From a virus: DNA of 14,562 bases. The stretch is taken from UHGV virus genome UHGV-0177146; one strand, 5' to 3'. The notes beneath the pieces were generated by a model. It had not been told where the DNA came from, searched no databases, and saw only the letters and a program-made list of their open reading frames with translations. Made by a program: the position numbers and the translations under genes. Positions 13,736 through 13,813 of the stretch are shown piece by piece (position 1 is the stretch's first letter; each line of letters begins with the position of its first letter).

Positions 13736-13813
13736 GGGAGATTGACGGTAATTGGTAAACCTACCATCCTTAGAAGTTGGTGTTTGAGGGTTCGAATCCC
13801 TTGTCTCCTACCA
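13736..13813 (+). tRNA. tRNA with anticodon TAG (Leu-type anticodon) but class I length (75 nt), CCA encoded
   Basis: Acceptor GGGAGAT/GTCTCCT, anticodon arm CCATC-CTTAGAA-GTTGG, T-arm GAGGG-TTCGAAT-CCCTT, A73; no long variable arm. Confidence 0.6.

Follow-up and report, generated by a model that had tools for sequence, protein, structure and literature searches.

The gene at positions 13736 to 13813 of the analyzed DNA stretch (14,562 nucleotides, in the following referred to as the window) is most probably a functional phage tRNA-Leu(UAG) of the type I form, i.e., with a short variable loop, which would be charged by the host and would decode CUA as leucine. Parts of this picture were already known, since the gene itself has been annotated, its homologues in T5-like phages received a manual annotation years ago and a bacterial type I tRNA-Leu has been published.

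The source of the window is a Felixounavirus, a Felix-O1-like coliphage. Over its whole length of 14.5 kb, the window shows 92–95% identity to many Felixounavirus genomes, which belong to myoviruses with E. coli and Salmonella as hosts. Using ARAGORN, a tRNA-Leu(tag) was identified with exactly the span given above on the plus strand. Its length is 78 nt with the encoded CCA and 75 nt without it, which agrees with the class I size reported in the first-pass annotation of the sequence. The Rfam model RF00005 matched positions 13737 to 13809 with a score of 40.0 bits and an E value of 1.3e-5 for the window (gathering score 29); this is the second lowest score in the tRNA array (Table 1). CUUAGAA was placed in the anticodon loop by ARAGORN as well as by the RF00005 alignment and therefore no other anticodon is preferred. 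The anticodon TAG and the loop CTTAGAA read in the first-pass annotation are thus those found by both tools, neither of which favored an alternative fold with a different anticodon.

All 19 tRNA genes of the array encode CCA (19 of 19), so that the register is fixed together with A73, which had been recognized before and is located at position 13810. In EF202P1, the closest relative, the array runs on beyond the window end with seven more genes. Hundreds of records already carry an annotation of the Leu(UAG) gene. A BLAST search with this gene against 5,426 E. coli genomes gave no match at E ≤ 10; it is therefore not a host or prophage gene.

Table 1. Coordinates of the tRNA-Leu(UAG) gene, its structural parts and the related tRNA features in the window.
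Feature	Position	Strand	Basis
tRNA array, 19 genes, including the Leu(UAG) gene	11475..14473	+	ARAGORN, Rfam
Type I tRNA-Leu(UAG) gene, 75 nt plus encoded CCA	13736..13813	+	ARAGORN, Rfam, 71 identical records
Acceptor 5′ strand GGGAGAU (partner 13803-13809)	13736..13742	+	7/7 pairs vary on both sides, 100% paired
3-nt connector UGA (U8, G9 and an additional A; standard length 2 nt)	13743..13745	+	ARAGORN
D arm, 3-position stem CGG/CCU, 11-nt loop UAAUUGGUAAA	13746..13762	+	Alignment with leuW and T5-like Leu1
Anticodon arm CCAUC/GUUGG with U30.U40 mismatch, loop CUUAGAA	13764..13780	+	5/5 pairs vary on both sides
Anticodon TAG	13771..13773	+	ARAGORN and Rfam alignment agree
5-nt variable loop UGUUU with U48 as last base	13781..13785	+	Cloverleaf, alignment
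T arm GAGGG-UUCGAAU-CCCUU	13786..13802	+	Cloverleaf, Rfam alignment
Acceptor 3′ strand GUCUCCU	13803..13809	+	Covariation in relatives
Discriminator A73	13810..13810	+	A in 200/201 family members listed
Genome-encoded CCA end	13811..13813	+	Register of the 19 array genes
Second type I tRNA-Leu, anticodon CAA	14315..14392	+	ARAGORN, alignment

In the cloverleaf (Table 1), the acceptor stem includes G1.U72 and U7.G66. The first pair of the D stem is C.U and the D loop carries A14, A15, G18, G19 and A20a, followed by A26 between the D arm and the anticodon arm. In the alignment with leuW of E. coli, U8, the pair U8:A14, G18G19, A20a and the T loop bases U54, U55, C56 and A58 were all found to be present. 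The variable loop of 5 nt (UGUUU) had been counted correctly in the first-pass annotation, in which the extra connector nucleotide, the weak pairs C.U and U30.U40 and the short Leu(CAA) gene do not appear. The anticodon UAG probably reads CUA and, if U34 is modified, the other CUN codons too. The phage loop has A37 where the CUN-reading leucine tRNAs of the host have G37. With A37 in this position, the m1G37 modification of E. coli would not be needed.

An alternative anticodon register (UUA or CUU) was ruled out, as the 7-nt loop CUUAGAA with U33 and A37 was given by both ARAGORN and Rfam. The acceptor register of the Rfam match (13737 to 13809, with a U as discriminator) was also rejected, because it works only with a deletion in the 3′ strand and does not retain the in-frame A73-CCA common to all 19 genes. 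This shift of the acceptor by one base is due to the extra nucleotide in the connector. The minimum free energy fold of the bare transcript was not a cloverleaf for the window allele (z = -0.78); the allele of AYO145A folds as a cloverleaf.

The 78 nucleotides of the gene were found to be 100% identical in 71 phage records, which span two genera. An identical copy is present in the Citrobacter phage Mordin (Mooglevirus), whose proteins in this region are 46–87% identical to those of the window. Pairing was analyzed in an alignment of 38 related sequences, with 500 shuffles and pairing partners slid by 1 to 3 columns as controls. Standard pairs were identified in 99.1% of the cells compared to 62.6% in the shuffled alignments, none of which (0 of 500) reached the observed value. 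The covariation score was 0.93 compared to 0.23 after shuffling, and 40–49% of the cells were paired in the slid controls. In the same 38 sequences, changes on both sides were found for 16 of the 19 pairs, and the sole unpaired cells were six U30.U40.

Compensatory changes could be identified in several groups of relatives. The anticodon stem is UCUCG/CGAGA in AYO145A and EcoM2 and CCUCG/CGAGG in Si3, Pectobacterium phages have the anticodon stem GCUUC/GUAGC with the acceptor stem GGGUGAU/GUCACCU, and T5-like phages have CCGUC/GUCGG with GCGUGAU/GUCACGC. The relatives, which had been named in the first-pass annotation as a point to check, have the same form with abundant changes of this kind, and these data show that the gene is under purifying selection and compensatory evolution. 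Several public records, produced with older tRNAscan versions, label the gene as tRNA-Pseudo-TAG or tRNA-OTHER. Considering the identity across genera and the compensatory changes, these labels are a scoring artefact and not a sign of decay. The TGA connector was also found in a subfamily of 75 nt from unrelated viral contigs and bacterial MAGs (ten stretches); therefore, this oddity is conserved too.

The two Felixounavirus alleles are 8 of 78 nt apart, with all differences located in the anticodon stem (13764-13780 compared to the AYO145A gene at 15265-15342). The stems are CCAUC/GUUGG and UCUCG/CGAGA, respectively, and the rest is identical. This looks like a replacement of the stem or strong selection on it, rather than drift. 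The U30.U40 position (13767 and 13777 in the window) is kept in the T5-like, Seunavirus, Pectobacterium phage and window alleles, and the pair 29-41 beside it covaries (G-C, A-U, U-A). Selection may act on the mismatch itself.

Directly upstream of the tRNA array, an ORF of 471 amino acids (9894-11309, plus strand) with DUF2828 and DUF7788 domains was found. It is named "RNA-binding protein" in RefSeq and carries a von Willebrand A domain according to one record; a search of the PDB gave no sequence match for this ORF. Its position next to the array is conserved in Felix-like and Moogle-like phages. The gaps of the array contain two sub-threshold tRNA-like matches on the plus strand, 12338-12388 and 13298-13372 (scores of 22 bits with the tRNA model and 23 bits with that of tRNA-Sec), which are possibly tRNA remnants or tRNA-like stable RNAs such as those annotated in T5-like phages. 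The tRNA-Met predicted by ARAGORN at 11728-11804 was not found by Rfam even at E ≤ 5. The tRNA-Tyr at 11968-12055 reached 29.6 bits with the tRNA-Sec model only, and it is labeled Pseudo-GTA in AYO145A.

The content of the array varies between related phages. In the slot of the Leu(UAG) gene, Sf14 has an unrelated short Leu(UAG) with 42 of 78 identical positions; the congeneric Mordin has the allele of the window. Between AYO145A and the window, Ala(TGC) is identical in 58 of 76 and Thr(TGT) in 55 of 77 positions. The Asp tRNA of the array is identical in 70 of 78 positions in close relatives, and the Arg(TCT) gene at 13077-13153 is absent from EF202P1 and AYO145A. Judged from the comparison of 11475-14473 with four further stretches, the array reads as a mosaic of swappable cassettes.

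The short form is not restricted to one gene of the window. The second leucine tRNA, Leu(CAA) at 14315-14392, has a 3-bp D stem, an 11-nt D loop (CAAUUGGCAGA), a short variable loop and A73. It is identical in 77 of 78 positions to Leu-CAA of Sf14, for which Leu was reported as the top tRNAscan-SE isotype (PMC12482277). A third Leu gene (UAA, 79 nt), which is located beyond the window end in relatives (15207-15285 in EF202P1, OP172796.1), is also short. All Leu tRNAs of this phage are without the long arm, which is retained in tRNA-Ser (90 and 93 nt) and tRNA-Tyr (88 nt).

For the identification of further short tRNA(UAG) genes, sequences were scanned for CTTAGAA followed after 11 to 13 nt by GGTTCGANTCC, a spacing that fits a short variable loop only. 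This resulted in at least 120 matches in viral contigs and at least 120 in contigs of bacterial or archaeal genomes. Among the matches listed, 116 viral and 88 genomic stretches hold tRNA(UAG) genes of 73 to 79 nt according to ARAGORN, and most of these listed genes are located in dense arrays with 10 to 38 tRNA genes per stretch of up to 14.8 kb. At least 200 distinct short tRNA(UAG) genes were found in viral contigs and bacterial tRNA arrays. In the 201 distinct sequences listed, A73 was present in 200, U48 in 198 and a variable loop of 5 nt in 200, and the stem positions outside the scan pattern were paired in 93–100% compared to 41–72% after shuffling.

Taking Leu tRNAs of all anticodons in the listed stretches together, the ratio of short to long was 194 to 11 in genomes and 209 to 36 in viral contigs; this sample is biased, as only stretches holding a short Leu(UAG) with this exact loop entered it. 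In the same listed stretches, long and short forms were counted 195 and 4 times for Ser and 68 and 15 times for Tyr. Within the sampled phage and mobile tRNA arrays, arm loss is a leucine-specific feature, and tRNA-Leu was shown to be commonly of the short form. The premise of the first-pass annotation that phage tRNA-Leu is class II did not hold, as T5-like Leu1 and Leu2 and most Leu tRNAs in the sampled arrays are short-armed.

Short tRNA(UAG) genes with A73 and U48 were observed in long arrays of Cyanobacteria (including a Calothrix plasmid), Acidobacteria, Myxococcota, Planctomycetes and others. In Pseudonocardia and further Actinobacteria, short tRNA(UAG) genes with these two bases were found as single genes. 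In the 200-kb Xanthomonas phage X1, a short tRNA-Leu with the anticodon CAG and a similar body was found (positions 94-170 of stretch L013); its D arm is ACG-GAAUUGGUAUA-CGU, its variable loop GUUUU, and A73 is present. In the searchable literature on phage type I tRNA-Leu, nothing could be found past the Streptomyces paper discussed below. In the same literature, no statement was found that tRNA-Leu genes of phages or arrays are typically short-armed, nor that coliphages supply short tRNA-Leu to the E. coli LeuRS, which is reported to use the long form only.

Apart from the missing arm, the body of the phage tRNA was found to be of the leucine type. Compared segment by segment, the gene matches leuW except for the long arm. 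Both have the anticodon UAG, U8 G9, a 3-bp D stem, A26, U48 and A73, and their 11-nt D loops (AAAUUGGUAGA in leuW, UAAUUGGUAAA in the phage gene) share the consensus NAAUUGGYANA. They differ in the variable region, which is an arm of 13 nt in leuW and a loop of 5 nt in the phage gene, and in the anticodon loop (UUUAGGU with G37 compared to CUUAGAA with A37).

The identity elements of the E. coli LeuRS were described as A73, A14, A15:U48, G18G19, A20a and contacts of the D and T loops in a 2023 review (PMC9976931). The anticodon and the long arm are not among them, and a minimal tRNA-Leu without the arm is still charged (PMC9976931). In the phage gene, the identity-element analysis suggested in the first-pass annotation found A73, A15:U48, U8:A14, G18G19 and A20a to be present; the long variable arm of the class II form is missing, with a loop of 5 nt in its place. 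According to established identity rules, synthetases that read the anticodon would reject U34 A35 G36, and of the anticodon-blind enzymes AlaRS needs G3:U70 and SerRS needs the long arm and G73 (PMC9976931). The pair 3-70 of the phage tRNA is G3-C70, not G3:U70, and its anticodon loop has 7 nt. Among the other tRNAs of the window, U73 is found in Gly and G73 in Asn, Asp and Ser, and Ala has G3.U70. With these canonical host discriminators and the G3.U70 of Ala, the tRNA set looks tuned to the host synthetases.

In the sampled arrays, the combination of a 3-bp D stem and an 11-nt loop was found in 61% of the short and 67% of the long-armed Leu tRNAs, whereas other isotypes mostly have a 4-bp D stem with a loop of 7 to 9 nt. 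A15:U48 was identified in 84% of the short and 80% of the long-armed Leu tRNAs of these arrays compared to 12–65% in other isotypes. In addition, profile HMMs for each isotype were built from the sampled tRNAs with masked anticodons and after removal of near-identical sequences. The Leu(UAG) gene scored 34.3 with short Leu(UAG) and 30.1 with short Leu of other anticodons, followed by Glu with 25.9. For the T5-like homologue, long-armed Leu ranked third, above every non-Leu isotype. This test serves as supporting evidence only, since 12 of 17 control tRNAs were assigned correctly. The published tRNAscan-SE scores of Sf14 Leu-TAG (Leu 67.4, Ile2 65.7, Lys 63.4; PMC12482277) were set aside, as they belong to a different sequence with 42 of 78 identical positions.

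CTA accounts for 24 of the 2,721 codons (0.88%) in the ORFs of the window. Where these codons are changed, other Leu codons were found in 7 of 7 cases in EF202P1 and in 12 of 13 cases in AYO145A (19 of 20 together). In the reverse comparison, the changed CTA codons of the two relatives correspond to a Leu codon in the window in 6 of 6 and 8 of 9 cases, and the other five Leu codons show the same behavior as CTA against close relatives. Compared to the distant Mordin, nine changed CTA positions are Leu and eight are non-Leu, the latter distributed over seven residues (Q, C, C, W, Y, K, V, M). As the changed CTA codons are mostly other Leu codons, CUA is a leucine codon in the phage lineage; it behaves as such and nothing suggests recoding. 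In a related phage, the usage of CTA was described to be above that of its host (RSCU 0.69 compared to 0.43; PMC12482277).

The first-pass annotation had offered two readings, an unusual leucine tRNA or a tRNA charged with a different amino acid, which would recode CUA codons. The former is supported by the leucine-type D arm, A15:U48, A73 and the best masked profile match, which is a short Leu. The latter is not supported, considering the changed CUA codons (7 of 7 and 12 of 13 are other Leu codons) and the lack of both an 8-nt anticodon loop and G3:U70.

The tRNA-Leu1 (CUA) of the T5-like phages T5, BF23 and Salmonella phage 5 (AJ604531) is a homologue of the window gene with an identity of about 84% over 74 nt. 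Both have in common CUUAGAA, U30.U40, the T arm, a variable loop of 5 nt, A73 and the encoded CCA. The T5-like Leu1 has a connector of 2 nt and a clean D stem ATG/CAT and a length of 77 nt with CCA, in contrast to the extra connector A and the C.U first D pair of the window gene. The acceptor stem and the pair 29-41 differ between the two by compensatory changes. In the T5-like phage 5, Leu1 and Leu2 are both 77 nt in length and short-armed (GenBank AJ604531). According to the depositors' note, Leu2 with its anticodon changed to CUA is an effective amber suppressor in E. coli (GenBank AJ604531). According to this note, a short phage Leu body would accept an amino acid and function in E. coli independently of the anticodon, in keeping with recognition by LeuRS.

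For S. coelicolor, a type I tRNA-Leu(CAA) was described, and the LeuRS of this species was shown to leucylate it (Fan et al., NAR 2019; PMC6614811). The E. coli LeuRS did not charge this tRNA in vitro, and the Streptomyces LeuRS was called the only prokaryotic LeuRS that handles both types (PMC6614811). Like the phage gene, the S. coelicolor tRNA is of the bacterial type with a variable loop of 5 nt, and it shares one cell and a single LeuRS with long-armed Leu tRNAs. It differs from the phage gene in being chromosomal and actinobacterial, in its variable loop ACAGC (C48) and in that A73 is not an identity element, whereas the phage Leu(UAG) has U48 with A15 and must rely on an enterobacterial LeuRS. 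A different behavior of the E. coli LeuRS towards the two tRNAs could be explained by U48 with A15 in the phage tRNA compared to C48 in that of S. coelicolor.

The type I tRNA-Leu of animal mitochondria also has a short variable loop, and its identity rests on A73 and A14 (PMC9976931). In contrast to the phage gene, to which it is not related in sequence, this organellar tRNA has a relaxed core and a LeuRS dedicated to it. The combination of class I shape and UAG anticodon is shared with the yeast mitochondrial tRNA-Thr(UAG) and the Ashbya tRNA-Ala(UAG). Hallmarks of such CUN recoding are an 8-nt anticodon loop (Thr) and a His-like body or G3:U70 (Ala) (PMC7609411). These are lacking in the phage gene, which has a 7-nt loop and G3-C70, and CUA behaves as Leu. 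For a mobile long array of Anabaena, 23 of 26 tRNAs were found to be aminoacylated in vivo (PMC8421152).

Taken as a working phage tRNA-Leu, the transcript would be synthesized together with the rest of the Felixounavirus array and trimmed to the encoded CCA, and leucine would be attached by the host leucyl-tRNA synthetase. The charged tRNA would then decode CUA as leucine and, probably via a modified U34, neighboring CUN codons. The host has one low-abundance tRNA-Leu(UAG) gene, and CUA is probably used more often by the phage than by the host. A likely use of the phage gene would be extra capacity for reading CUA, and it may also substitute for the tRNA-Leu of the host if infection leads to depletion or cleavage of host tRNAs.

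The same gene could be regarded as a decaying pseudogene, i.e., a leucine tRNA which lost its arm by deletion and does not work. The labels tRNA-Pseudo-TAG and tRNA-OTHER in several records, the low Rfam score of 40 bits, the U30.U40 and C.U mismatches, the extra connector nucleotide, the minimum free energy fold and the tRNA-like remnants elsewhere in the array would fit to such a decay. Nevertheless, it is quite improbable, considering the identity of 100% across genera whose proteins are 46–87% identical and the differences among relatives, which are almost all compensatory. Even the unusual features are conserved (the UGA connector in its subfamily, U30.U40 in T5-like, Seunavirus and Pectobacterium phages), CCA, A73 and U48 are intact, and the short form is common to all three Leu genes of the phage. 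Highly improbable is a charging with a non-leucine amino acid, by which CUA would be decoded differently or ambiguously. The class I shape is unlike the host tRNA-Leu, the E. coli LeuRS failed on the S. coelicolor type I tRNA-Leu in vitro (PMC6614811) and a reassignment of CUN by an odd tRNA(UAG) is known from yeast mitochondria (PMC7609411). Furthermore, 8 of 23 CTA partners in Mordin are non-Leu, which is somewhat above the other Leu codons; these partners are scattered, however, with no single amino acid among them, and 19 of 20 changed CUA codons are other Leu codons in close relatives. The gene has G3-C70 and a 7-nt anticodon loop instead of G3:U70 or an 8-nt loop, and anticodon-reading synthetases, AlaRS and SerRS are excluded by the identity rules (PMC9976931). 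In addition, the host tRNA-Leu(UAG) would go on reading CUA as Leu.

The RNA might also have the shape of a tRNA mainly for a non-decoding job, as a decoy or substitute for tRNA-cutting defense nucleases, with translation being secondary. Phage tRNAs were described to counter anticodon nucleases via changes in the anticodon loop (PMC10264068), and the loop differs from that of the host at positions 32, 37 and 38, the most among the Sf14 tRNAs (PMC12482277). The Felixounavirus alleles differ in the anticodon stem only (8 of 78 nt), and a bacterial Schlafen cleaves between nucleotides 30 and 31 in the anticodon arm (PMC13056530). Such a role is improbable as the main function, as everything required for charging and decoding is conserved (CCA, A73, the core, U33 within a 7-nt loop) and these hosts are not known to have a nuclease directed at tRNA-Leu(UAG). 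Moreover, a replacement tRNA still acts by decoding, which results in a large overlap with the preferred reading as a functional tRNA-Leu. Schlafen was also considered as a class II-specific nuclease and rejected, since it cuts the anticodon arms of Lys, Met and Ala tRNAs with no preference for class II (PMC13056530).

With regard to the origin of the form, it is conceivable, though rather unlikely, that the short arm is the selected default of tRNA-Leu in phages and mobile arrays, which sheds a handle for host factors that read class II tRNAs. If so, recognition by LeuRS would be kept without the arm because it rests on A73, A15:U48 and the elbow, and the factors evaded would be defense nucleases or competing synthetases and modification enzymes. 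The enterobacterial LeuRS would then act on type I tRNAs in nature, in disagreement with the published opinion that the Streptomyces LeuRS is the sole prokaryotic enzyme to do so. The anticodon-stem alleles and the conserved U30.U40 would reflect an arms race with nucleases that act on the anticodon arm.

For the annotation of Felix-O1-like phages, the gene is to be regarded as a tRNA-Leu and not as a pseudogene, and there is no evidence of an altered code in these phages. In textbooks, a short-armed bacterial tRNA-Leu is a rarity of Streptomyces. It was likewise described as such a rarity in the 2019 study (PMC6614811). In the samples analyzed here, short tRNA-Leu is usual in the arrays of coliphages (Felix-O1-like, Moogle-like, T5-like and Seunavirus) and in long arrays from many bacterial phyla, in which Ser and mostly Tyr tRNAs keep their arms. 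This raises the question why mobile tRNA sets lose the arm of leucine alone.
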